Of a DNA stretch of 64,000 bases, positions 18,527 to 44,405 are shown piece by piece. Origin of the DNA: an uncultured Gammaproteobacteria bacterium (GTDB lineage: Bacteria; Pseudomonadota; Gammaproteobacteria; SZUA-229); contig CALODJ010000003.1 in NCBI GenBank assembly GCA_942492025.1, positions 451,841 through 515,840 of the forward strand. The letters run 5' to 3'. The notes beneath the pieces were generated by a model. It searched no databases and was not told the DNA's origin. It worked only from the letters and a program-made list of their open reading frames with translations. Each line of letters starts with the position of its first letter. The first letter of the stretch is position 1. The position numbers and the translations under genes are program-made.

Positions 18527-19393
18527 ATGATAAAAAGTATGACTGCATTCGCGCGTGTGCAGAAGAGTGAAAAGTTTGGCACGCTGACCTGGGAGCTGAG
18601 ATCGGTCAACAGTCGTTATCTCGATATCAATTGCAGATTGCCGGAAGATTTCCGGGCTCAGGAAGGCCGTGTACGCGAGTGTATCAACACGCGCCTGCAG
18701 CGTGGCAAGATCGAATGTGGACTTCGATTCATGCCCGAGCTGGCCATTGAAACCGGGATCGAAGTCAATGCCGCTTTGGTCAAATCCCTGATCGACGCCT
18801 GCCAGCAAATCAATACCCGTTTACACCAGCCTTCGGAAATCAATCCGGTTGATATACTCAGCTGGCCCGGCGTGGTGGCAGAGCCGGAACAGGATTTCAA
18901 GGTCATATACGCAGTATCCGAGAAGCTGTTGCAACACGCGTTGGATGAGTTGGTCGCCAACAGGTTGCGTGAAGGCGAACGCATGCGTGAACTCATACAG
19001 AAGCGTTGCGCCAGCATGCAGCAAATTGTTGCTGATGTCAGACAGCAACTGCCGCAAATACAGCAACGCTATCGTGAAAAACTGACGGCCAGACTCGAAG
19101 AACTGAATACCGGTGTCGAACAGGATCGCCTGGAGCAGGAACTGGTGTTTCTCGCACAGAAGATGGACGTGGATGAAGAACTGGATCGCCTGGAAGCGCA
19201 CCTTGGGGAGCTTTGTGATGTACTCGATCGCGAAGAGGCGGTGGGAAGGCGGCTGGATTTTCTGATGCAGGAGCTGAACCGTGAAGCCAACACCCTGGGG
19301 TCAAAGTCGGCGGATATCTCCACCACCCAGGCATCGGTGGAACTGAAAGTATTGATCGAACAGATGCGCGAGCAGATTCAGAATATTGAGTGA
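18527..19393 (+). CDS. yicC: YicC-family stress-induced protein.
   Basis: MIKSMTAFAR N-terminus and a C-terminal DUF1732 region. Confidence 0.8.
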   Translation: MIKSMTAFARVQKSEKFGTLTWELRSVNSRYLDINCRLPEDFRAQEGRVRECINTRLQRGKIECGLRFMPELAIETGIEVNAALVKSLIDACQQINTRLHQPSEINPVDILSWPGVVAEPEQDFKVIYAVSEKLLQHALDELVANRLREGERMRELIQKRCASMQQIVADVRQQLPQIQQRYREKLTARLEELNTGVEQDRLEQELVFLAQKMDVDEELDRLEAHLGELCDVLDREEAVGRRLDFLMQELNREANTLGSKSADISTTQASVELKVLIEQMREQIQNIE

Positions 19394-19576
19394 TTGTTGT
19401 TGACGCGAAGGCGCGAAGACATAAATAGTACAGAACTTATGTGATAAGGTTTTGAGTCCGCAAGTGAACGCGAATGTTCGATGCTCTACAGGCGCTATGC
19501 TGGAGATAACGGCCATTGCATTTCCGGTTTTATGCTGCTCGCCTCCAACGTTATAGTTACGAGGTTCAAATACACC

Positions 19577-21469
19577 CTAACTTTTGTTTATAACCAGTCC
19601 GGTTGCCTTTTCCTCCGGAATCATTGTCAGTGCCTCCTCAACCACAGCTTGAGGTGTTTCGCCGGCTTCAACAACCAGGACAACCTGTCCCACCAGGCCT
19701 GCCAGGACAGGCGTCTCAGGTGTGCGCAATACGGGTGGCCCATCGAAAATAATCACGTGATCGGCATAACGCGAGGCCATTTCATCCACAAGGCTGGCCA
19801 TGCGTTGACTTGCTAACAACTCGGTAACATGCTCATGATGCTTCCCCGCTGAGAGCAGGCTCAAGCGTGGAATGTCTGTCCGTCGGATCACATCTGCAAC
19901 AGTAAGATTTTTGTCTTCAAGGACATCGACCAGACCTCTTTCTTCACCCAGATTCAATAGTTCGCTGACACCCTTTCTGGTGACATCACAATCCACCAGC
20001 AGAACGCTGTTGTCGCGCTCCTGTGCGATGGAAAGAGCAAGGTTGATGGAGGTGTGCGTTGTGCCTTCACCAGGCATTGAACTGGTTATAAGAATAAGGT
20101 TACCCCGATCTATCAAGGATGCGTTTTTACCGAATGCATTGGACAACAACGGTCTTTTGATACGGCGATATTCATCCGTGAAACCGGGATCGAGATTGCT
20201 ACCGGGTACCAGCATATTCTGTCTGCGTAACAACTCGAATACGGCGACACTGTCAGGACCTGGCGTGTCAGGACCACTTTTACCTTGCGCAGCATCTGCC
20301 GTTTGAAATAAGTTGGCCACTTGCCTGTTGGCTGCAGTGGGGCGTTTCCTGTTTCGCTCAGGAATCAATGCATCAGCGGGAGCTGCGACCTTTGGTGTTT
20401 TTATTTTCGACACCTTGTTGTCTGCACGCTTCAAAGCAACGCCCGTTGCCGTTGTTGTGGGATCTTCCGCCTGCCGTAAACGGGCATCGCCAGACACGGC
20501 GCCATCATTTTTTTGATCGGTGGCCAGAACGGCCTTATGAATGGTTTTTTTTTCAGCCGCTGGTTTCAAACCCTTTGTGCCGCCGCCAGGATTGATCCAC
20601 GGAAAAGTATCGTCATCCCTGCTGCTTGTGTTCTTTTTCTTGTTGGGTTTGACCAGAGGCAGGATACTGTTCTCCATACGCTCACTGATGACTTGCTCGA
20701 TCAAATTAGCATCGATGGTTTTGCATTGGTCGGCGAAGCCGTAAACCATTGCCGTATCGCAGAGCAGGTTGATCAAACGCGGTACGCCATTGCTGGATTC
20801 AGCGATTAACCTGCAGGCATCAGGAGTGAATATATCTTCTGTTGCACCCGCGGTGACCAAACGATGCTGAATGTAATGACAGGCCTCTGCAGTATTCAAC
20901 GCATCAAGATGAAAATCCACCGAGATACGCTGGGCGAACTGCTTCAGTTCCGGCTTCCTCAGTGTATCTTTCAGATCAGGCTGGCCAGCAAGAATAATCT
21001 GTAAAACCAGGTCCTTTTCTGAGTTGATATTCGAAATCATACGCAACTCTTCCAGAGTTGTCGCTGGCATGTTTTGTGCCTCGTCGACGATCAACAACAC
21101 GGTTTTGTTTTTGGCATACTGCTCAAGCAGGAAATCGACGAAACGCTGGTGCATCTCGACCTTGCTCAGGCCGGGCTCATGAATGCCATAAGCGGAAAGC
21201 ACCCAGTCAAGTAATTCACCGAATGACTGATGGGTATTGGTGATCATGCCAATCGTGATATCGTCTTCGAGGGAGGTTAGCAGCTTGCGTAGCAAGGTTG
21301 TTTTGCCGGCGCCAATCTCGCCGGTGATGACACAAAAACCCACGTTGTTCATCTGAGCGTACTCGAGCATGGTGAGTGCGATTCTGTGCTTCTTGCTCAG
21401 ATACAGAAATTCCGGGTCCGGCAATATCGAAAATGGCTTGGTTGTCAAGCCATAAAATGATTCATACAT
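19577..21469 (-). CDS. Fusion protein. The N-terminal part is an ExeA/GspA-like AAA+ ATPase. A low-complexity linker follows, and the C-terminal part is a BY-kinase/MinD-like P-loop domain with a degenerate Walker A.
   Basis: N-terminal GEIGAGKTTLL (Walker A) and LLIVDEAQNM (Walker B). C-terminal ITSSMPGEGTTHTS (the expected GEGKST lysine is absent), LLVDCDVTRKG and HVIIFDGPPV. Confidence 0.7.
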   Translation of the reverse strand: MYESFYGLTTKPFSILPDPEFLYLSKKHRIALTMLEYAQMNNVGFCVITGEIGAGKTTLLRKLLTSLEDDITIGMITNTHQSFGELLDWVLSAYGIHEPGLSKVEMHQRFVDFLLEQYAKNKTVLLIVDEAQNMPATTLEELRMISNINSEKDLVLQIILAGQPDLKDTLRKPELKQFAQRISVDFHLDALNTAEACHYIQHRLVTAGATEDIFTPDACRLIAESSNGVPRLINLLCDTAMVYGFADQCKTIDANLIEQVISERMENSILPLVKPNKKKNTSSRDDDTFPWINPGGGTKGLKPAAEKKTIHKAVLATDQKNDGAVSGDARLRQAEDPTTTATGVALKRADNKVSKIKTPKVAAPADALIPERNRKRPTAANRQVANLFQTADAAQGKSGPDTPGPDSVAVFELLRRQNMLVPGSNLDPGFTDEYRRIKRPLLSNAFGKNASLIDRGNLILITSSMPGEGTTHTSINLALSIAQERDNSVLLVDCDVTRKGVSELLNLGEERGLVDVLEDKNLTVADVIRRTDIPRLSLLSAGKHHEHVTELLASQRMASLVDEMASRYADHVIIFDGPPVLRTPETPVLAGLVGQVVLVVEAGETPQAVVEEALTMIPEEKATGLVINKS

Positions 21470-21995
21470 AAACTACACTACTCTGAAAATCCATTCGTCA
21501 TGCCATTACTCATGAAACATGCGTAGCTGTCGATCGGTTTTCGTTAATCATCGATCCGGTGCTACGCTTGGACCATTCCCGACCAGTCAGGATGTCATAT
21601 GTCCACTTGATCGGTCAGCCTTATCAGGCCGCTTTGCAGATGGCTTCCTCTTTCGCTCATAGACAACTTTAACCGGAATTCCGGGCCATATATCGGCATT
21701 CGACGAGAAATTCAGGCGTAACTGACCACGCAAACCACCTGACCTTTTGAACCCCGGTCACCGTGACCCGATTCAAAAGCACCGTCTTAGCGGGTACCCC
21801 AGCGTTTGCAACAGCCATTAGCATCGAGGCTCCATACACCGAGTTCATACCCGTCGCTTACGATCAAACATCGTCCACAGAAATGACAACCTATACCGTC
21901 TCTGGCCTTGCCATGGCCATTACCGGATATTGTCTCATCATGAATTTATTATACACCTGCGCTTGTGAAAAGGTGTGTTTCTTCACACTATTTAG

Positions 21996-22086
21996 CCCGC
22001 ATTTCTCACCAGGCGGCGTAGAAAACTGATATGGCATTGGCTATTCGGAGTAAAGCCAGGATGACACAAAATACAGTGTGTATTCC
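21996..22086. repeat. MITE fragment (left ~90 bp only).
   Basis: TA-GCCCGCATTTCTCACCAGGCGGCGT... matches the left end of the 30593 copy. Confidence 0.65.
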
Positions 22087-22128
22087 CGCCTGAGCAAATG
22101 GCATGGCCCGGCCTTACCCTTTTTTTCG

Positions 22129-24075
22129 TCAGTTGCCCGCTTGCAGACGAACGTCCCCTCTGGAACAGGCGATGGGTACTTCGAATATCTGGTCTTCCGG
22201 GAAAGACTGGGTCACGATCCAGATCTGGGTGATATCGTCGCTGAGTTCGGGTAACACCTGGATCGCCTTCCGCGTTCTTTTCTCATCGAAAAAGGCGAAC
22301 GGCTCATCCAGGAATACGAACTGCTGACTCTCCACATTGCGGTTTACCAGTTCTTGCGAGAGCGCCAGACGAACCGCCAGCATGATCTGGCGTTGGGTGC
22401 CGCTGGAGATCTCCTCCAGGTCCATGAAGTCCCTTTTTTCGTTCGAAAACACGCGCACGCTGAGGTCTTCGTCGATCTGCAGATGCTCGTATCGATCTTC
22501 CGTGAACAGCGGCAGGGTGTGGCCGACCAGGTCCCTCAGTTCTTGATTAAACCGTCGGGACAATTGGCGGATAGCCCCATGGAGCAAGTCGTTCGCCAGC
22601 TCGCGCAGCTGAATCCCGCGTTCGTATTCGCGCATGCTCTGCTCGAAACTTTCTTGCGAAAGCGTCAAGTTCTCTGCTGTTTTCAAGCGTTGTCTCTCTT
22701 CCCATATCGGTTGTTCCAATGCATCCATACGCTGTTTGAGATCATCCATCCGGTCCCGCATCCAATTCAGCTCCCTCCCGACGGCATCACGCACCTCGGC
22801 TGGCGCCGCCTCGGAGGATTCGATGCGTCTGCAAAGTGCGGCAATCTGTTGGTCGTCCAGACGTGGAGGCAGATTCGCTTCGGTGTCACCGCTTCCTGAT
22901 TCGCCTGAGTTGTGATGCGGTTCTTCTATCGTCGAATCTTCGCCAGATGTTGCTTCCCTGACGGTCGATTCACCCCCCGTTTGCATCGAATCGATGTCCA
23001 GGACTGGATCAGTCTGGCCGGCATCTGCCCGCAGTCTCATCAGTTTTTCGGCCAAAACGGGGGAGCCTCGTTGAAGCTTCGCAGCGCGGTTGTTCAGGGA
23101 GGATACCCGGGCCCAGAACAGTAGAAAAAGCACCACGAAACCTATACCCCCGTACAACAGCCAGGGAAGCTGGGCTTCACTCCATTGAGGGATCAGCCGA
23201 GAAAGTGTGTTGGTCAATCCCTGGACGTATTCATTCGCCGGCAGGTACGCTATGAGCACCCAGGCGCCCGTCAGAACCACCGCCAGACTCAAACTTAGAA
23301 ATCGCAGAAATCGAGCCCGGGCACGGCGACTTTCGGCTGTGCGAATCGCGGGCAACGCATCCTGATAGGCGATCGAAGCTTGTTCGATTTGGTCGGCCTG
23401 ATCCTTGATCTGCGCCGCGGATTGCCCCAGCTCGGCGTGTTCCTGCTGCATCGAAGGTAGGCGGTCGGGCTGGATGTTTAGATCCGCCAGCTCCTGCTCG
23501 GTTTCCTGGAGCTGAAGCCGGATTTTTTCCCGTTCTTCATGCTGCGCCTCGATCTCATCGTGGTATTCGTCAGACACCATTCGCAACGAGGTCAGACCAG
23601 CCATAGCCTTTACCGCATCGCTGTGTGGGTGGGGTGCAGTAATTTCGCGCTGTGCGAGATAAAAGGATTCGATAAATTCGTCGTACCCGTATCCCAGTAG
23701 ACCCTGGAGCGCTCTGTCTACGAATTCAACTCCGCGAGTAATTGGCAGGTCCTGCTCGCCGACACGGTTCAAGCGGGCTCCCTGGTTGCCATCTCGGTCG
23801 AAAAACCGGGTGATTTCATAGTGTTCACCGTCTCCGATTCGAAAGCGGAGCGTTGCGCTACAACGGGTCTCACCCCACCGAATCAGCTTGTCCAGTTCCT
23901 GACTGGTAAGAGAGAAGGTTCGGCCAAATAACGCAAAGCAGATGGTCTCTCCGATAGTGCTCTTGCCGGATTCGTTCAGGCCGTGGATGGCTATTAGCCC
24001 TTTTTCAGGAAGATTGTTCAGCTCAAGACTGGCATATTTGAGAATGTTTTCCGCTATCAAATCCGTGATAATCAT
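22129..24075 (-). CDS. SMC/SbcC/RecN-like ABC ATPase carrying a central transmembrane hairpin (a membrane-anchored SMC-like protein).
   Basis: Walker A GLNESGKST, Q-loop YLAQRE, signature-like ISSGTQRQ, Walker B FVFLDEPFAFFD, and long coiled-coil-like Q/E-rich arms. Two hydrophobic helices (LSLSLAVVLTGAWVLIAYL and LLYGGIGFVVLFLLFWA) sit where a hinge would be. Confidence 0.65.
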   Translation of the reverse strand: MIITDLIAENILKYASLELNNLPEKGLIAIHGLNESGKSTIGETICFALFGRTFSLTSQELDKLIRWGETRCSATLRFRIGDGEHYEITRFFDRDGNQGARLNRVGEQDLPITRGVEFVDRALQGLLGYGYDEFIESFYLAQREITAPHPHSDAVKAMAGLTSLRMVSDEYHDEIEAQHEEREKIRLQLQETEQELADLNIQPDRLPSMQQEHAELGQSAAQIKDQADQIEQASIAYQDALPAIRTAESRRARARFLRFLSLSLAVVLTGAWVLIAYLPANEYVQGLTNTLSRLIPQWSEAQLPWLLYGGIGFVVLFLLFWARVSSLNNRAAKLQRGSPVLAEKLMRLRADAGQTDPVLDIDSMQTGGESTVREATSGEDSTIEEPHHNSGESGSGDTEANLPPRLDDQQIAALCRRIESSEAAPAEVRDAVGRELNWMRDRMDDLKQRMDALEQPIWEERQRLKTAENLTLSQESFEQSMREYERGIQLRELANDLLHGAIRQLSRRFNQELRDLVGHTLPLFTEDRYEHLQIDEDLSVRVFSNEKRDFMDLEEISSGTQRQIMLAVRLALSQELVNRNVESQQFVFLDEPFAFFDEKRTRKAIQVLPELSDDITQIWIVTQSFPEDQIFEVPIACSRGDVRLQAGN

Positions 24076-24392
24076 GCGACGCCCCCTGTTTCTAACGTCT
24101 GGAGTCTGCGCACGGTCATTTCCACAGCTTGCTCAAACAACGCTTCGTCGAAGGCATCCCCCGAATTTCTGCGGTGATGGATCTCAGACTCGCAGTAGAT
24201 GGCGAATTCCCTGGATGCTTTTTTCAGTATCCCGGGGTCACCGGGGGTGGGTTCCTCTTGTTCGAAGCGCTCGATCACCGCTCCCGCCCGTTCGGTCGAC
24301 TCCGGGGCAGTCGCCTCGGTTTCCGCACTGACCAGGGACGCATCCTCCGGCGCGACACCGTTGGGAGACGTGACTTGTTGATCTTCGTTCAT
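24072..24392 (-). CDS. Small acidic hypothetical protein translationally coupled to the SMC-like ATPase.
   Basis: The ATGA stop/start overlap with the downstream gene, a GGAGAA RBS before MNEDQQ, and ~107 aa rich in E/D/A. Confidence 0.5.
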   Translation of the reverse strand: MNEDQQVTSPNGVAPEDASLVSAETEATAPESTERAGAVIERFEQEEPTPGDPGILKKASREFAIYCESEIHHRRNSGDAFDEALFEQAVEMTVRRLQTLETGGVA

Positions 24393-24866
24393 ATTGAGTT
24401 CTCCACTGTGTTGTTGGTCGCTCCCGGATACCCTGTGCCCGTCGAGCACCGAGCCAAGAGAGTCGTTCTTGATCCGTTACACAGTAGCAAAAAAAAGGAT
24501 GGAAACGAACCGGTGGTAGAACCCATTCGCCTATCCGGATAACCGCGGCCCCGTTCATCTGGTGCGAAATGCGGGCTGATTCGTGGAATCTATTAGAGGA
24601 CTACGCCATTCCCGGCCCAATGACGCTGGCCTGCTGTATGTATCGACTCCTGCGATGCAGAGCCGGCAGTAGCCGTAGAGCATTCCGCCGCGAATTCCTC
24701 ACACTATTGCGCGATATTCGCGGCGGAAACTGTTCTTTTGCCGAGATTTCTGTGTTACGTACGGTGTTCGTGCACCCTGTAGGTCTTCAAATACACGAGC
24801 GTTTGTTTGCGGACTGATGACGCCACCTGTATTAATGCTGCGCTGTTTACGTTTGAGCACCAAACA

Positions 24867-28357: not shown

Positions 28358-30592
28358 ATGAAAAAGCTGAAACTCGTTCTGAAAATTTTTGGCATTGTTG
28401 TCGTGCTTTTGCTGCTTGTTGTGGCAGCATTTGTTTTTACCTTCGACCCGAATAACTATAAAGATACCATCACCGCCCAGGTTGAAAAACAGACCGGGCG
28501 TGATTTTGAAATTGCGGGTGATATCCGCCTGTCAGTCTTTCCCTGGATTGGAATCAAGGTCGAAGATGTAAAACTGGCGAACGCAAAGGGTTTCAGTGAT
28601 GAGCCGTTTGCGCGAATGGCGCAGCTTGACGTCAAGGTCATGCTAATGCCCTTGTTGCGCAAAGAACTGCAAGTTGACAAGGTACGTCTGCATGGCCTGT
28701 TTGCTTCGCTGGAGGTCGATGAACAGGGCAACAACAACTGGTCGGATCTGGCCGGGCAGGAAGATGTCTCGCAACAGCCGCCCACACCAGAGCAGACAGT
28801 CGATGAGGGTGAACAGCCGCCGGCACTGGCAGCACTGGCCATCAATGGTGTTGAGTTGATTGATGCCTCTGTGAAGTGGACGGATCTGCAGAATAATGTG
28901 CACTCGCATTTGTCAGGATTCAGTCTGACCATGGGCGCTATTCGTTTCAATGAAGCGGTGGATATCGAATTAAATACCAGCGTTAAGCACAATGAGCCCG
29001 AACTTGATGCCCAGATCAATCTGACGACCCGGCTTACCTTCAACGAGGCGTTTACCAATGTGTTACTGGATGCATTAAAGCTGAAGGTAACAGCCAATGC
29101 ACCGTCGCTGTTCACCGAACAAGTGGACTTGCTGTTGCTGAGTAATATCAATATTGATGTCGATCAACAGGTTGCGGCATTGAATAACACCAGCGTATCG
29201 GCTATGGGTGTGACTTTATATGTCAACGTGGAAGTGGCCAATCTGGTATCAGAGCCGGTGATCAGTGGAAACGTTTACACGGACGACATCAACGCGCGTA
29301 TTCTGGCGGGCCGCCTGGGCATTGAACTACCGCCCATGGCCAGCGATAGCAGTATGACAAAAATCGCCTATGCGTCCACATTCAAGGCGAGTGCCAATAT
29401 GATAGAGATGAACGCTATCAAGCTGACGCTGGATGACACGGATATCACAGGCTGGTTACATGTGCCCGATGTGGCACAACCGACGGTGCGTTACAAACTG
29501 CACATGAGTTCGATCGATGCTGATGCCTACCTGCCGCCGGTCAGCGATGTCGCAGCAGGGGAGCCAATCCCGGCTGGCCCAGTTGAGGGTACGGCGGCCG
29601 TTGACTCCAGCGCAGATCCGGACGATGCTGAAATCGAGTTACCGGTCGAATTGCTGCGCAAACTCAATATGGAAGGCCAGCTGAACATGGACAGTGTCAC
29701 AGTCAACAAAATACCGCTCACTGCTATACTGGTCGAAACGCAGGCCAAAGCAGGCTTGATACGGATTGATCCACTGCAACTGAAAACACTCGATGGCAAT
29801 GTTAACGGCAGCGTGATGATGAATGTGAAAGGCGAGACGCCCGCTTATTCGGTTGGCCTGAAAGCCTCGAACATACGCCCGGGACCGGTTGTCAACCCGA
29901 TGCTTGTAGGGGTGTTTGGAGAGCAGGAAGTGACCCTGGAGGGTGCGGCCAACATGCTCGCGGACATCAACACCAGCGGTACGCGCGTCTCGCAGTTAAA
30001 GCAGGTGGCCAAAGGCAAGCTGACGTTCGATATGGCCAAGACCGTGCTGCAGGGCGTCGACTTCGAACACTTTGCGCGTAATGTGGTGGCTGATTATCTG
30101 GCCACAAAGAGTCTGCCTGTACCCGCCGACTGGCGTGGCAGCCTTAATCCGGAAACGAAAACCGCGTTTAACCGTGCCCATGCCAGTGCCGTGGTGGCGA
30201 ACGGTGACATCACCAATCCTGACTTGATTCTGGATTCGACCCGACTCAAGGTCACCGGCCAGGGTGTGGTAAATATCATGCGCAACGATATGGATTATCG
30301 CGCACTGGTGGATATCAAACCACCACGCCGGCAAACGACCGCAGATAAGTTACTGGATCAACCGATAGCGGTGCATATTCACGGTCCATTCGAGCTGTTG
30401 GCATACGATGTCGACACCAGCCAGATCGCCAGTTCCTTGTCCAGTCTGCTCGAGGCCGAGGCCAAGGCCAAAATCAACAAAGAGTTAGAGGAAGAAAAAG
30501 CCAAGCTGAAGGAAAAAGCTAAACAGGAAGAGGACGAGATCAAACAAAAACTCGAGGACAAATTAAAGGACAAGTTAAAAGGTCTGTTCTAG
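28358..30592 (+). CDS. asmA: AsmA-family outer-membrane assembly protein with a K/E-rich C-terminal tail.
   Basis: N-terminal TM anchor followed by the AsmA N-domain (ITAQVEKQTGRDFEIAGDIRLSVFPWIGIKVEDVKL), for a total of 744 aa. Confidence 0.8.
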   Translation: MKKLKLVLKIFGIVVVLLLLVVAAFVFTFDPNNYKDTITAQVEKQTGRDFEIAGDIRLSVFPWIGIKVEDVKLANAKGFSDEPFARMAQLDVKVMLMPLLRKELQVDKVRLHGLFASLEVDEQGNNNWSDLAGQEDVSQQPPTPEQTVDEGEQPPALAALAINGVELIDASVKWTDLQNNVHSHLSGFSLTMGAIRFNEAVDIELNTSVKHNEPELDAQINLTTRLTFNEAFTNVLLDALKLKVTANAPSLFTEQVDLLLLSNINIDVDQQVAALNNTSVSAMGVTLYVNVEVANLVSEPVISGNVYTDDINARILAGRLGIELPPMASDSSMTKIAYASTFKASANMIEMNAIKLTLDDTDITGWLHVPDVAQPTVRYKLHMSSIDADAYLPPVSDVAAGEPIPAGPVEGTAAVDSSADPDDAEIELPVELLRKLNMEGQLNMDSVTVNKIPLTAILVETQAKAGLIRIDPLQLKTLDGNVNGSVMMNVKGETPAYSVGLKASNIRPGPVVNPMLVGVFGEQEVTLEGAANMLADINTSGTRVSQLKQVAKGKLTFDMAKTVLQGVDFEHFARNVVADYLATKSLPVPADWRGSLNPETKTAFNRAHASAVVANGDITNPDLILDSTRLKVTGQGVVNIMRNDMDYRALVDIKPPRRQTTADKLLDQPIAVHIHGPFELLAYDVDTSQIASSLSSLLEAEAKAKINKELEEEKAKLKEKAKQEEDEIKQKLEDKLKDKLKGLF

Positions 30593-30899
30593 CCCGCATT
30601 TCTCACCAGGCGGCGTGGAATACTGGTAAGACATTGGTTTTTTGGAGTGAAGCTCGGATGATTAAAAATACAGTGTGTTATTCAAGCCTGCCTATCACGG
30701 TTCAGGCTGGTCTTGGTTTGCATGAGATCGTAGGGTGCGCTGTGCGCACCGTGAATCTTCAGTGTGCTGGGCTGTTTCGGTGCGCACGGCGCACCCTACG
30801 GTCGCTTCGCCCAAGCTGTTGCTACGCTTTTCGCTCCAGAGCGGCGCTTTCGAGCACGAATCCTGCGCCTGCTCCCGTGATCCTGGTGAGAAATGCGGG
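30593..30899. repeat. MITE, full copy (307 bp), flanked by cTA ... TAg. It ends 4 bp upstream of the mutY start codon.
   Basis: Perfect 18-bp TIRs CCCGCATTTCTCACCAGG / CCTGGTGAGAAATGCGGG and an internal REP palindrome. It is near-identical to 184-489. Confidence 0.8.
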
Positions 30900-37867: not shown

Positions 37868-39700
37868 TCAGTCCACCAGGTGATATACGGGAGCTTTCTC
37901 CAACGTGTATTCCCCAGACTCCGGATCACGATGCGACACAGTAAGCGCGTGCCAGTTGGTGTCGTCCAGTTTCGGGAAATCCCCACGGTAGTAATAACCG
38001 GGCCAACGCGTCTCCTCGCGGAACAGCGTATGCTGGACCACACACTCTGAAGCAATCACCCGGTGCTTTAGCTCCCAGGCCCGCTGCAGCTGATGCAGAT
38101 CCTCCGCACCGACATGCTCGAGATCTTCCTGCAGCAATCTAAGGTGTTCCAGTCCGCGCGTCAGCAATGGCTCATTGGTCATGTAGTTGACCGTGATACC
38201 ACCCGCGTATTCGTCCATTATCTTTTCGAGTCGCTGCAGACCGTGGATCGGCAGGATGTAGCTGGGCGACACGGTGCCGGCGACGATCTCGTTGCGCCCT
38301 ACGCTGTAGGTCTCGAGCGGCTTGTAAATTACCGCGCGCAGATCTTCGATTTGCTTGTCAGAGACCTTGAGCTTGTCCTTGGCATGATCCCTGACATAGT
38401 TGACAGCCGCTTTGGCCGCGAGTCTGCCCTCGGTGAATGAACCCGAAGAGAACGCGTGCGCGGTACCGCCGAGCGCGTCACCGGCACCAAACAGACCCTC
38501 AACGGTCATCATCCGGTTGTAACCCCAGAAGTATTCAGCAGGCGACACATCCTCAGGCCCGCTGGCCCAGGCGCCGGAGCAGGTTGCGTGAGAACCCATC
38601 ACGTACGGTTCCGACGTGGTCAACTCCGGATTCGTGTATTTCGGATCGATGTCCTGGGACGCCCACACGACCGCCTGACCAACGGTCATACCGAGGAAGT
38701 TTTCCCAGCCCACGGTTTCCTTGTGCGGATCTTGGAACGCTTCTTTGGTGACCATATGAATGGGTCCCCGACCAGCCGCAACCTCGCGCAAGAAGGCATG
38801 GTTGCGCAAGCAGGTGGGCGTCGGGTGATGGTCGACGTAAGGCCCAACCAGTTCTTTCGTATCCTCATACCATTTCGACTCGTACTCTTCACCATAGGCG
38901 TTTTGCGTATACGTTTTCAGATGAAGAAAGTACGCGCCGACCGGCCCGTAGCCATCCTTGAAGCGGCACAGTACGATGCGGTTCTCCATTTGCGTCATCT
39001 TGGCGCCGGCCATGATCGGCAGCGCGTAGGCCGACGCGCTGCTCCAGGGTGCGTACCAGGTGCGTCCCATGCCCTCGCCGACAGCGCGCGGCTTGAAAAT
39101 ATGGGAGGCACCGCCAGCTCCGACAATGACCGCTTTGGCCTTGAACACATGTAGATCACCGGTGCGCACATTGAAGCCGATCGCACCACCAACCCGATTC
39201 GGCTGGTTCTCATCCATCAGTAAATGCGTCACCATGATGCGGTTGTAGATTTTGTCGGCGGATTTGCGCGCGGCCTCGGCGACCAGCGGTTTATAACTTT
39301 CGCCGTGTATCATGATTTGCCATTTCCCCTCCCGTTGATATCGACCTGTGTCCGGATCTCGCATGATGGGAAGGCCCCACTCTTCGAACTGGTGGACGGT
39401 CGAGTCAACGTGCCGGGCCATGTCATAGGCAAGGTCTTCTCGCACCATTCCCATCAGATCATTTCGTGCGTAACGTACATGGTCTTCGGGTTGATTCTCG
39501 TCCCAGCGCATGCCCAGGTAGCAGTTTATCGCGTACAGGCCCTGAGCAACGGCGCCGCTGCGGTCGATGTTGGCCTTTTCAGCTACAACGACTCTAAGAT
39601 CACGACCCCAGTAACGAGCCTCGTAGGCAGCACCGGTACCACCCATGCCACCGCCAACAACCAAAATATCACATTCTTCGTAAACAGTTTTGAAGGCCAT
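37868..39700 (-). CDS. aprA: Adenylylsulfate (APS) reductase alpha subunit.
   Basis: MAFKTVYEECDILVVGGGMGGTGAAYEARYW... FAD-binding N-terminus and a size (610 aa) typical of AprA. Confidence 0.9.
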   Translation of the reverse strand: MAFKTVYEECDILVVGGGMGGTGAAYEARYWGRDLRVVVAEKANIDRSGAVAQGLYAINCYLGMRWDENQPEDHVRYARNDLMGMVREDLAYDMARHVDSTVHQFEEWGLPIMRDPDTGRYQREGKWQIMIHGESYKPLVAEAARKSADKIYNRIMVTHLLMDENQPNRVGGAIGFNVRTGDLHVFKAKAVIVGAGGASHIFKPRAVGEGMGRTWYAPWSSASAYALPIMAGAKMTQMENRIVLCRFKDGYGPVGAYFLHLKTYTQNAYGEEYESKWYEDTKELVGPYVDHHPTPTCLRNHAFLREVAAGRGPIHMVTKEAFQDPHKETVGWENFLGMTVGQAVVWASQDIDPKYTNPELTTSEPYVMGSHATCSGAWASGPEDVSPAEYFWGYNRMMTVEGLFGAGDALGGTAHAFSSGSFTEGRLAAKAAVNYVRDHAKDKLKVSDKQIEDLRAVIYKPLETYSVGRNEIVAGTVSPSYILPIHGLQRLEKIMDEYAGGITVNYMTNEPLLTRGLEHLRLLQEDLEHVGAEDLHQLQRAWELKHRVIASECVVQHTLFREETRWPGYYYRGDFPKLDDTNWHALTVSHRDPESGEYTLEKAPVYHLVD

Positions 39701-40170
39701 TAGTAATACACCCCCTGCTTGAATTTTGACTTATCAACCATTGGCAGCCCGCCATCGATTTTCAGCCCATCGGGCTCGTGGCAGAGCAAAGGAGATCCGA
39801 GCGCTTCGCCGTCGGGGACTTCAAAGTCAGCGAGCTTGGGTATTTTCTCACCCCAAGGCTGCGTGGTGATAGGCGAAACAAAGTCTTTGACACGGCCATC
39901 TCGAAACTTGACGCGCCACGAAATCGTCCCCTTTTCCTCTTCTCGCAACACTCGGACGCTATGTCCCAGCGGCGCGTAGTCGGCGCCTCCCCTGACGTCA
40001 ATTGCATTCTGCGGGCAGGCTTTGACACATGAATAGCATTCCCAACACATATTGGGCTCGATGTTGTAGGCACGCCGGTAGGTCTTGTCGATATGCATGA
40101 TATCTGACGGACAAATATCAACGCAATTTCCACAGCCGTCACAGCGAGTCATATAAACAAAAGTAGGCAT
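39700..40170 (-). CDS. aprB: Adenylylsulfate reductase beta subunit (iron-sulfur).
   Basis: MPTFVYMTRCDGCGNCVDICP ... CWECYSCVKACP ferredoxin-like cysteine clusters. TAATG overlap with aprA. Confidence 0.9.
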   Translation of the reverse strand: MPTFVYMTRCDGCGNCVDICPSDIMHIDKTYRRAYNIEPNMCWECYSCVKACPQNAIDVRGGADYAPLGHSVRVLREEEKGTISWRVKFRDGRVKDFVSPITTQPWGEKIPKLADFEVPDGEALGSPLLCHEPDGLKIDGGLPMVDKSKFKQGVYY

Positions 40171-40220
40171 TACGGTTTCCTCCAGGTTTTCTACTTCACA
40201 TACACTTTTCAATAAATTCT

Positions 40221-42807: not shown

Positions 42808-44094
42808 ATGAGTTCTGGCATGGTACCGCCGTCACAACCACCGGCTCCCGGGGGTACACCGCCATTGGATTCGATCGGGCGCGCCGGCGGAATCATCCAC
42901 CTGTTCGCACAACACCCCGTAGCGGCCAACCTGCTGATGGCGACAATGATCATCCTCGGCGCCTTCAGTCTGACTCAACTGAACAAACAATTTTTCCCCA
43001 ATTTTGCGCTCGACTATATCACGGTCAACGTCATCTGGCGGGGCGCCAGCGCCGAAGATGTGGAGCGTTCGATTACGGTTCCATTGGAACAGGCATTACG
43101 GACACTCGATGGTAAAAAGGAAATGACATCGACTTCGACGCGCGGCCTTAGCGCTATCGTCATCGAATACGAAGAAAACACTGATATGGGCATCGCGCTG
43201 GACGAGGTCAAGCAGTTCGTTTCCAATATTCGCAACTTGCCCTCCGACGCCGAAGACCCGATCGTCACCCGGATCGCGCGTTATGAAGCGGTCGCAACCA
43301 TCATCTTGGCTGCCGAAGGCGAACTCGATGAGCTACGCCCGCTGGCCCACCAATTTGAACGCGAGCTGCTCGATCGTGGTAGTGCACGAGTGGACTTTGC
43401 CGGCATGCCCGAGCAGGAAATTGCGATCGAGGTCAGTGCAAAACAAATCCAGCAGCTCGGCCTGTCGTTAAACCAAATCGGCGATCGTATTATCAGTCAA
43501 AGTCAGGATATACCGGCGGGTACAGTCGCGAGAGTGAAGCTGCGCGTGAAGTCCGTGGGTTGCAGCGTAAACGTGATGTTCAGGAATTCGCCTCGCTGGA
43601 CCTGCTGACGACCGCAAGTGGTAGCAAACTCACGCTGAATGATATCGCCGAGATAAAACGGCGACCCAAAGAAAACCAGGTGGAAATTTTCTACCAGGGC
43701 AAACCGGCCGTTCTGATGAACCTGCAGCGGACCGATAGCACAGATGCCCTGGTATTGGCCGATATCATGCAACAGTGGCTGACCGAAACTCGCGAGACTC
43801 TAACACCATTTATCGAATTGGTCGTGTTCGACGAGAAGTACGCGTTGATACAGCAGCGCATCGACCTGTTGGTCAAGAACGGTATCTCCGGACTGGTGCT
43901 GGCGATCTTATACATTTTCCTGAATGGACGCGTAGCGTTCTGGGTCGCCATCGGCATACCCGCATCTTTTCCAGGTGCGCTGGCCGTGCTGTATTTCTTC
44001 GGCGGCAGCATTAACATGATCAGCCTGTTCGCGCTGATCATGACGCTAGGCATCATCGTCGATGATGCCATCGTCGTCGGTGGGGATGCACTGA
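42808..44094 (+). pseudogene. RND-family (AcrB/CzcA-like) inner-membrane transporter, N-terminal ~45% only. It has one internal frameshift and is truncated at an IS91-fragment junction.
   Basis: IIHLFAQHPVAANLLMATMIILGAFSL..., a TM1-periplasmic loop pattern and a second ORF piece at 43560-44094. Homology stops at ...VVGGDALTHYQ. Confidence 0.7.
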
Positions 44095-44405
44095 CCCATT
44101 ATCAAATGGAAGTCATCGCGTGCATCGAAGACCCGCTGGTGATCAAGAAGATACTGACGCACCTGCGCGGTAACGGGCTGTATCTAGAGGCCGCCGGTTT
44201 GCCGCAGAGCAGGGCGCCACCACAGGGCGACTTGTTTAGCTGAGAAGCGCAAGCCGGTCATTCAAAGTAATTCAGAACAGATATAGCTGCGACCCTGACA
44301 GAAGCGGCAAGATGCCGTCTGGCCCACGGGTTGGGATTAGCCTGCAAAGAGACACATCAGGGGCCGGCGAGCGCGGGGTTTCCTCAGATTGGGATGGAAT
44401 TCAGA
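44095..44405 (+). mobile_element. IS91-family element 3' fragment, copy A (last ~45 codons of the transposase plus ~170 bp of downstream end region).
   Basis: VIACIEDPLVIKKILTHLRGNGLYLEAAGLPQSRAPPQGDLFS is characteristic of IS91/ISCR transposase C-termini. It is near-identical to 46585-46900. Confidence 0.6.

Follow-up and report, generated by a model that had tools for sequence, protein, structure and literature searches.

TIGR03015-type ATPases and TIGR03018-type tyrosine kinases have XrtA/PEP-CTERM loci in common; the Haft 2006 paper on PEP-CTERM is silent on both families. Bacterial tyrosine (BY) kinase domains bind the cytoplasmic end of the polysaccharide co-polymerase (PCP) and form rings through an EX2RX2R motif (PMC9800525). 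According to PMC12004946, the BY pseudokinases EcpK of Myxococcus xanthus and HfsB of Caulobacter crescentus serve the kinase-less PCP-2 co-polymerases EpsV and HfsA, respectively, as phosphorylation-independent scaffolds; EcpK has lost all three Walker motifs, is conserved across myxobacteria and was shown to interact with the PCP. Here we describe a gene from an uncultured gammaproteobacterium in which an AAA+ ATPase related to TIGR03015 is joined to a BY-kinase domain that, from its sequence, appears to be a pseudokinase. It lies at positions 19,577-21,469 of a 64-kb stretch of contig CALODJ010000003.1 (assembly GCA_942492025.1); the whole stretch, 64,000 nt, is called the window below, and the product of the gene is called P0001.

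Two protein families in one open reading frame

A first-pass annotation of the window had proposed a gene at this position, and its limits proved to be exactly those of an open reading frame (ORF) on the minus strand. That annotation had described an ExeA-like AAA+ ATPase with intact Walker A and B motifs, a disordered K/P/A-rich linker, and a BY-kinase fold that retained Walker A' and Walker B and had lost the P-loop lysine and the C-terminal Tyr cluster. Profile searches with TIGR03015 and TIGR03018 recovered both families, and every one of these features was found again in the analyses that follow.

The N-terminal half matched TIGR03015, the XrtA/PEP-CTERM system-associated ATPase of NCBIfam, over residues 1-263 with 282.5 bits (curated cutoff 324.5); the ATPases encoded within the XrtA loci of two relatives (contigs L013 and L017) scored only 267-272 bits against the same profile. 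The E-values of the TIGR03015 and TIGR03018 profiles, 3e-84 and 3.5e-72, place both matches beyond chance. Pfam AAA_22 matched residues 44-170 (E=3.9e-26), Walker A (GEIGAGKT) and Walker B (LLIVDEAQ) are intact, and the half deviates at 3 of 127 family-conserved columns. With the two halves modelled separately in AlphaFold2 (AF2), residues 1-303 reached a predicted local distance difference test score (pLDDT) of 87, and Foldseek placed the model with ORC (ORC2), Cdc6 and TnsC (TMq 0.59-0.64); no sequence-level match to this half was found among solved structures. Its identity to the XrtA-locus ATPase of L013 is only 32%. No transmembrane (TM) segment was detected in the fusion (highest 19-residue hydropathy 1.38, threshold 1.6) and no peptidoglycan-binding family was among the Pfam matches listed for it; the ATPase half is therefore not an orthologue of ExeA/GspA.

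The linker (residues ~268-404) is rich in A, K and P, has no modelled secondary structure and has a pLDDT mostly of 36-67. Its ATPase-derived part keeps the conserved motif FPWINPxGGTKGLKP and ends at the site where the TM helix of the parent protein begins.

The C-terminal half matched TIGR03018, the XrtA-associated tyrosine autokinase, at residues 429-628 (profile positions 10-207 of 207) with 242.1 bits, above the cutoff of 230.65, and Pfam AAA_31 at residues 459-583. The AF2 model of residues 405-630 (pLDDT 79-96) had BY-kinase domains as all of its top 50 fold matches in the PDB, every one from Wzc, CapAB, BceF, VpsO or Etk, with TMt values of 0.62-0.78 for isolated kinase-domain chains. 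In phmmer the half matched VpsO with E=1.6e-21, and its amino acid identity to the stand-alone kinase P0121 is 79%. It retains Walker A' (LLVDCDVTR), Walker B (IIFDGPP) and the oligomerisation motif EX2RX2R (E433-Y-R-R436-I-K-R439).

Two single-base lesions distinguish it from its relatives. The first changed AAA to ACA, turning the Walker A lysine, present in 120/120 of the closest stand-alone kinases as PGEGK(T/S), into the threonine of SSMPGEGTTHT. T470 aligns with the P-loop lysine of VpsO and with the methionine at the Lys540 position of Wzc in structure 3la6, K540M being the engineered substitution of the non-phosphorylated octameric Wzc structure (PMC12004946); neither a shifted nor any other lysine was found within the kinase P-loop of the fusion. 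The second changed GAG to TAG and cut off the Tyr cluster. The glutamate codon at this site is GAG in the three closest relatives and GAA in L031, and after the residues NKS, with which the fusion ends, 12/12 aligned relatives run on into EG...R.GYYYGY; the last 40 residues of the fusion contain no tyrosine. Among the 88 columns that are at least 95% conserved, the fusion deviates at four (K470T, T488S, L529R and R571H), against a mean of 1.15 for its relatives. More than 60 codons follow the TAG in frame before another stop (19,380-19,576, minus strand), reaching the 3' end of yicC in antisense; a product of read-through would gain a long tail and no Tyr cluster.

By profile and fold, the kinase half thus belongs to the XrtA-type BY-kinase family. 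It lacks three of the defining features that were examined, namely the Walker A lysine, the Tyr cluster and a place beside the co-polymerase gene, and should not be called an autokinase. As far as sequence can tell, it answers to the BY pseudokinases as described in PMC12004946. P0001 and its variants are named 'XrtA-associated tyrosine autokinase' at NCBI and 'exopolysaccharide/PEP-CTERM locus tyrosine autokinase' at JGI. Both names ignore the ATPase half, the lost lysine and the lost Tyr cluster, and the NCBI name is misleading.

The identical protein was found on 13 contigs, from six NCBI metagenome-assembled genomes (MAGs) and four Logan runs; as far as the contigs reach, its flanking genes do not change. 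Four variants from JGI/ENA metagenomes differ at three residues only (D322N, A391E and L536M); T470 and the stop are common to all. The same junction is present on at least 15 contigs from independent assemblies, made with different assemblers in different projects, and the gene is therefore not an assembly artefact; it is a real, lineage-specific chimera. The allele is fixed in all samples seen, from at least four studies, and is confined to one clade of ~99.5% identity.

The first-pass annotation had held that the two activities are normally encoded separately and that the fusion was not a familiar arrangement, and both statements stand. Separate genes are found in L013, L017, L031, L015 and L016, and a search for orthologous fusions gave none beyond this one species-level clade, so that the protein does not belong to a common family. 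A word-index search with the full-length protein returned only the fusion's own cluster, and with the C-terminal half (231 residues) all 120 listed matches were stand-alone proteins of 273-314 aa; this second search omitted P0001 despite the exact sequence, so absence from it is not proof of absence. An exhaustive HMMER search over 1.84 billion cluster representatives gave no ATPase-kinase fusion among its best 150. The closest relatives of the N-terminal half (77-84% identity) end in a TM helix and a long coiled coil. Candidates for further fusions were rejected: L015 and L016, which had appeared as end-to-end matches, carry separate adjacent genes (kinase, then ATPase), and P0288 (679 aa), in the HMMER search the sole substantial match in two stretches, is a tandem TIGR03015-type ATPase. 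The second ATPase domain of P0288 is 25% identical to the first over ~250 residues; the ATPase family thus forms other kinds of fusion as well.

Origin of the two halves

The host has a canonical ATPase gene whose membrane-anchored product consists of the AAA+ domain, the linker, a TM helix and a long coiled coil; an inverted segmental duplicate of this gene supplied the first ~375 codons of the fusion. The ATPase half is 83% identical to this canonical protein (P0010/P0245), which is encoded in the same MAGs (GCA_049667685.1, GCA_049668745.1 and GCA_049668065.1). The end of contig L036 overlaps positions 1-360 of the window at 99.7%, which places the canonical gene ~6.2 kb upstream of the window start and ~26 kb from the fusion, in the opposite orientation. 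In relatives and in the host, the canonical gene is preceded by the radical-SAM gene amrS (L011, L012, L018 and L036-L039). A fragment of amrS was duplicated with it and still stands upstream of the fusion (21,718-21,927), with 70% nucleotide and 53% amino acid identity to amrS of L018 and one in-frame stop. On the other side the duplicated segment stops just before the TM helix of the parent; a TM-like segment follows residue 300 in 107/107 relatives of at least 550 aa and is missing from the fusion.

A dispersed intergenic repeat of ~110 nt is present, as a truncated copy, at the outer edge of the duplicated segment. The repeat resembles REP (repetitive extragenic palindromic) or MITE (miniature inverted-repeat transposable element) sequences, occurs on the minus strand of the window at ~100-215, ~21,993-22,095 and ~30,592-30,700, and has a 23-nt core (GCCGCCTGGTGAGAAATGCGGGC). 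The core was also found in L011 (3245-3331), L013 (532-555), L017 (3443-3489 and 11141-11163), L018 (4210-4277) and L036 (13762/17950/18260), and is thus common to MAGs of several related organisms. The copy at 183 forms a perfect terminal hairpin, and the copy beside the duplicated segment is cut off inside the same hairpin; the truncated repeat may mark the breakpoint of the duplication. Rfam gave no family for the copy at 21,993-22,095, the other two copies in the window lying beyond the range that was scanned.

A 191-aa protein with a weak match to the PEP-CTERM sorting domain is encoded in L011 (12183-12758, minus strand), ~2.4 kb downstream of that relative's canonical ATPase gene. Its presence is a hint that exosortase substrates may have a link to the long TM/coiled-coil ATPases as well.

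For the kinase half, nucleotide homology to the kinase genes of L017 and L013 (blastn) starts at fusion codon 386 (window position 20,313; kinase codon ~26) and passes the stop. There the gene for the XrtA chain-length determinant (TIGR03007, 479 bits) and the kinase gene behind it overlap; Poly_export comes next in L013, and the L017 contig ends shortly past the kinase gene. The host's own XrtA locus (L040-L045), which is syntenic with that of L017, was found, by way of its co-polymerase, on contigs of fusion-carrying MAGs, runs and metagenomes (GCA_049668745.1, GCA_049670005.1, SRR28061043, ERZ27251032 and JGI 3300032136). Here the slot for the kinase gene, between the co-polymerase and Poly_export, holds only a stub of 36 codons (MSTTR*INGQQ...ATFLQTANAAQ), which shows homology to kinase codons 1-36 and is interrupted by a stop at its sixth codon. 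Behind the stub come 727 nt of unrelated DNA (11678-12404 in L040 and the same in L041-L045; GC 0.50), which looks non-coding and had no match in any sequence compared. The last 24 nt of the stub are identical to positions 20,284-20,307 of the window at 23/24 sites, and each of the two differs from L017 at 6-7 positions. The stub complements the fusion and agrees with it at 23 of 24 nt at the junction; the kinase half therefore comes from the XrtA kinase gene of the host itself, of which it is the body, and is not foreign, and the original copy is destroyed. P0122, P0194 and P0124, the best kinase matches in NCBI and Logan, had been considered as the host's own kinase and were rejected, as they come from other organisms. 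The displaced TM/coiled-coil part of the ATPase, which would be the reciprocal product, was looked for in the host XrtA locus and not found.

The co-polymerase at the host XrtA locus (P0400, 525 aa, a TIGR03007-type PCP) has its full length and a conserved tail at the C-terminus, and 10 contigs encode it without any difference. Since it is followed only by the kinase stub, it is kinase-less at the level of the locus.

Constraint, proposed role and alternatives

Both halves look to be under constraint. Omega (the ratio of nonsynonymous to synonymous divergence, dN/dS) was 0.08 for codons 1-300 against the canonical genes and 0.05-0.11 for the kinase half against stand-alone kinases, values like those of functional gene pairs. 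The amrS fragment served as a clock: its differences at codon positions 1+2 (0.22-0.28, compared with 0.06-0.15 among functional orthologues) and the loss of its codon-position signature correspond to ~0.15-0.2 unconstrained substitutions per site. When drift of this extent (d=0.15-0.20) was simulated with substitutions only, indels being ignored, stop-free outcomes made up 3-6% of trials for the kinase part (245 codons) and 0.2-0.5% for the ATPase part (375 codons). Relative to its sisters, with L031 as outgroup, the kinase half shows an excess dN of ~0.03-0.05, far under the neutral expectation, and the sole new stop (TAG) falls right at the end of the folded domain. The terminal branches of the two halves, 0.113 and 0.124, are somewhat long, the medians of the families being 0.030 and 0.057, and lie in the top decile. 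Among population variants we counted ~6 synonymous and 3 nonsynonymous changes, of which the kinase half holds 0 and 1 (L536M), respectively.

By analogy with EcpK and HfsB, we propose that the protein could be a soluble ATPase-pseudokinase and that the orphaned co-polymerase would use it as a scaffold independent of phosphorylation, a reading that in our judgement stands at an even balance. The chimera would be expressed and functional, as a soluble AAA+ ATPase that carries a BY pseudokinase domain in place of its former membrane anchor. From the cytoplasmic side, this domain would still dock on the XrtA co-polymerase (PCP-2b, TIGR03007) and act there without phosphorylation, as proposed for EcpK/EpsV and HfsB/HfsA, and the docking would hold a TIGR03015-type ATPase at the complex for polymerisation and export. 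A shared ATPase-kinase complex fits the gene order in relatives and host, where genes for TIGR03015-type ATPases share a locus with the kinase (L013, L017 and L040) or stand directly beside it (L015 and L016). A narrower claim, that a recently converted BY-kinase with two point lesions is at once the membrane-targeting module of the AAA+ ATPase and the sole cytoplasmic partner of the XrtA co-polymerase, is advanced tentatively and seems to us distinctly doubtful.

Several observations weigh against the scaffold reading. The fusion gene is far from the XrtA locus, and the host genome may hold another BY-kinase outside that locus. The values of dN/dS blend the history before and after the fusion, and the population variants are too few to give power to a comparison of nonsynonymous and synonymous polymorphism (pN/pS). 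Use of the amrS clock for the kinase half assumes that the join is as old as the duplication, and with stub and fusion identical at 23/24 sites the join could be later. K470 and R571, both invariant in the subfamily, are lost, and the top-decile branches (0.11-0.12) would also fit an early phase of relaxed constraint. Retention is seen within a single clade of ~99.5% identity only. Finally, no promoter or terminator signal exceeded shuffled controls, and Rfam gave nothing above background.

A possible account, if on balance an unlikely one, is that the gene is a tolerated by-product. The rearrangement would have broken the kinase gene of the XrtA locus and chanced on an open chimeric frame, leaving the kinase half as a drifting relic with no role at the co-polymerase; the ATPase half may keep some activity, and the host XrtA system would be losing its phosphoregulation. 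In its favour are the debris around the rearrangement (the amrS fragment, the truncated repeat, the kinase stub and the unrelated filler DNA) and the confinement of the fusion to a single narrow clade. The two disabling lesions, together with R571H and L529R at conserved positions of the kinase half, the long terminal branches of both halves and the nonsynonymous nature of the only kinase-half polymorphism are also in line with it, and if the join is recent the low omega and the intact frame would be pre-fusion history. However, all 630 codons are open, though a C-terminal half of no use could have taken a stop at any point past residue ~300 without harm, and the one stop that has arisen sits at the exact end of the folded domain. 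Nor would a relic be expected to keep 84/88 conserved columns with the oligomerisation motif, Walker A' and Walker B intact, or to show so small an excess dN where the amrS clock predicts ~0.15-0.2, and fixation of the allele in every sample seen is a further point against it.

It is improbable that the kinase-like half acts as a self-association module only, replacing the TM helix and coiled coil and oligomerising the AAA+ domains without any link to XrtA or exopolysaccharide (EPS). The swap did occur exactly where the TM helix and coiled coil of the parent start, the EX2RX2R motif by which BY-kinase domains assemble into rings (PMC9800525) is still there, and the gene stands outside the EPS locus. 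But the solved rings also use a Tyr tail docked in the active site of the neighbouring subunit, a tail that the fusion has lost, and it would be left unexplained why the donor was the only kinase of the host XrtA locus and why the PCP there is intact.

Residual activity of the kinase half, through non-canonical nucleotide binding and with other proteins or the internal Y434 and Y568 as targets, could be imagined from the high confidence of the modelled fold; it is very improbable in view of a Walker A lysine invariant in 120/120 relatives, the use of K540M at the same position in the non-phosphorylated Wzc octamer structures, a loop with no other lysine and the missing acceptor tail. That an assembly or binning error joined two unrelated genes, a usual concern with a metagenome-assembled genome and with repeats nearby, is practically negligible given the junction with identical flanks on at least 15 contigs (NCBI MAGs, Logan, JGI and ENA) and the complementary stub in the XrtA locus of the same samples.

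If the narrower claim above, of a sole cytoplasmic partner, is right, the gene would be a natural Rosetta-stone fusion, indicating that TIGR03015-type ATPases act at the complex of co-polymerase and BY-kinase, and chain-length control could shift from phosphorylation cycles to ATPase-driven cycles within one species. The physical joining of a BY-kinase domain to an ExeA/TIGR03015-type ATPase in any case yields a testable hypothesis of one complex. The locus also offers a rare view of a bacterial pseudokinase at its birth, with one missense and one nonsense mutation and the debris of the rearrangement still readable; the known BY pseudokinases are old, with all Walker motifs gone, whereas that of the fusion is young. 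Kinase-dead BY pseudokinases have been described before (PMC12004946), and their part as working partners of polysaccharide co-polymerases was recognised only of late; only the fusion partner and the recency are unusual here. All this concerns one uncultured species, in which an evolutionary accident is credible.

Genomic context and comparison with known systems

The features of the gene and of its upstream flank are listed in Table 1.

Table 1. Positions in the window of the chimeric gene, its parts and the associated remnants.
Feature	Position	Strand	Remarks
Chimeric gene, 630 codons + TAG	19577..21469	-	AAA+ ATPase, linker, predicted BY pseudokinase; ORF call, ATG at 21469
AAA+ ATPase domain, ExeA/TIGR03015-like, initiator-clade fold	20681..21469	-	Residues 1-263
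AAA+ Walker A GEIGAGKT, intact	21299..21322	-	Residues 50-57
AAA+ Walker B LLIVDEAQ, intact	21074..21097	-	Residues 125-132
Linker from the ATPase parent, residues 264-385	20315..20680	-	BLASTP homology to P0002 up to residue 375
Fusion junction, residues 374-395	20284..20350	-	
Part from host XrtA-type BY-kinase gene, residues 386-630	19580..20314	-	Kinase codons ~26 to ~270; origin as indicated by the stub
EX2RX2R oligomerisation motif E433/R436/R439, retained	20153..20173	-	Motif definition from PMC9800525
Degenerate Walker A SSMPGEGTTHT	20051..20083	-	T470 codon ACA at 20060-20062; Lys AAA in relatives
Walker A' LLVDCDVTR, retained	19976..20002	-	
Walker B IIFDGPP, retained	19733..19762	-	H571 just before it, in place of the subfamily-invariant Arg
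TAG stop	19577..19579	-	In place of the Glu codon of SEG before the Tyr cluster
Untranslated, decayed remnant of the Tyr-cluster tail	19529..19576	-	GVFEPRNYNVGGEQHK; GVFERSGYYYGYYGAGSEK in relatives
amrS pseudogene fragment, last 70 codons	21718..21927	-	Co-duplicated with the 5' part of the ATPase gene
Truncated REP/MITE-like dispersed repeat	21993..22095	-	Outer edge of the duplicated segment

The neighbours of the fusion are yicC, rph, rdgB and a gene for an SMC-like ATPase, and no XrtA-locus gene was found within the window. The fusion gene is thus not part of an XrtA/PEP-CTERM locus, and the parental ATPase copy, which follows amrS, is also outside the EPS locus. The first-pass annotation had pointed to EPS, PEP-CTERM and exosortase genes as the expected company of both families; this holds for the separate genes of relatives, which share EPS/XrtA loci, and fails for the fusion itself.

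The gene for the SMC-like neighbour, a 648-aa SMC/Rad50-like ATPase (AAA_23, with an SbcC Walker B), overlaps at its start with an ORF of 125 aa that matched no family; together they occupy 22,129-24,449 (minus strand). Distant metagenome contigs (L023, L024 and L026) carry the same two genes as a module, for which PADLOC gave weak matches only, to mad3, LmuB and PbeC; it could be of the defence type. Both genes were considered as partners of the fusion and rejected, since the module occurs independently elsewhere without ATPase or kinase genes and its PADLOC matches are weak. An empty site between the SMC-like gene and yicC was sought in relatives, and the metagenome scan gave only distant, non-syntenic loci.

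Farther along the window, two overlapping ORFs on the plus strand (42,808-43,608 and 43,560-44,243) match positions 1-224 and 236-405 of the AcrB/AcrD/AcrF profile and are probably a frameshifted or fragmented gene for a resistance-nodulation-division (RND) pump. Genes for adenosine 5'-phosphosulfate (APS) reductase, an AprA-like flavoprotein and AprB, lie at 37,868-40,212 (minus strand), and dsrC adjoins the canonical ATPase locus in L011, L012 and L018. Together, the APS reductase genes and the nearby dsrC suggest that the host is a sulfur-oxidising gammaproteobacterium.

When the N-terminal half is set beside its counterparts, it is closest to the canonical paralogue family of the host (P0010/P0245, P0002 and others), which is encoded after amrA-amrB/amrS: the first 300 residues are 80-84% identical, omega is ~0.08 and the motif FPWINPxGGTKGLKP is shared. 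Unlike these paralogues, the fusion has had its TM helix and coiled coil replaced, and it lies at a different location in inverted orientation. With ExeA/GspA of type II secretion and with TIGR03015 it shares an AAA_22-type domain and the same N-terminal signature; unlike ExeA/GspA, it has no TM segment, and a peptidoglycan-binding domain is missing from its listed Pfam matches.

The C-terminal half compares most directly with the TIGR03018 kinases P0121 and P0122, stand-alone proteins whose genes come immediately behind that of the XrtA chain-length determinant. Residues 386-630 of the fusion share 77-79% identity with them and agree in fold, Walker A', Walker B, EX2RX2R and 84/88 conserved columns. 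The fusion differs from both in lacking the first ~25 codons, in having Thr for the Walker A Lys and a Tyr cluster that is cut off, and in its position behind an AAA+ ATPase and outside the EPS locus.

Like EcpK and HfsB, the fusion has a BY-kinase fold without catalytic competence or Tyr tail, as judged from its motifs, and the cognate PCP-2 is kinase-less at the XrtA locus; the likeness is one of description, and the fusion would act on its PCP in the way proposed for them, EcpK being the one shown to interact. Unlike EcpK, it has lost only the lysine and the tail, by two single-base changes in one species-level clade, and has kept Walker A' and Walker B. EcpK and HfsB are moreover stand-alone proteins, whereas the domain described here is joined to an AAA+ ATPase. 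In carrying a BY-kinase-type domain as C-terminal module, the fusion resembles Wzc and Etk (PCP-2a) and co-polymerase-pseudokinase fusions such as SMc01795 (PMC12004946); in those proteins the N-terminal partner is a transmembrane/periplasmic co-polymerase, whereas here it is a soluble AAA+ ATPase.

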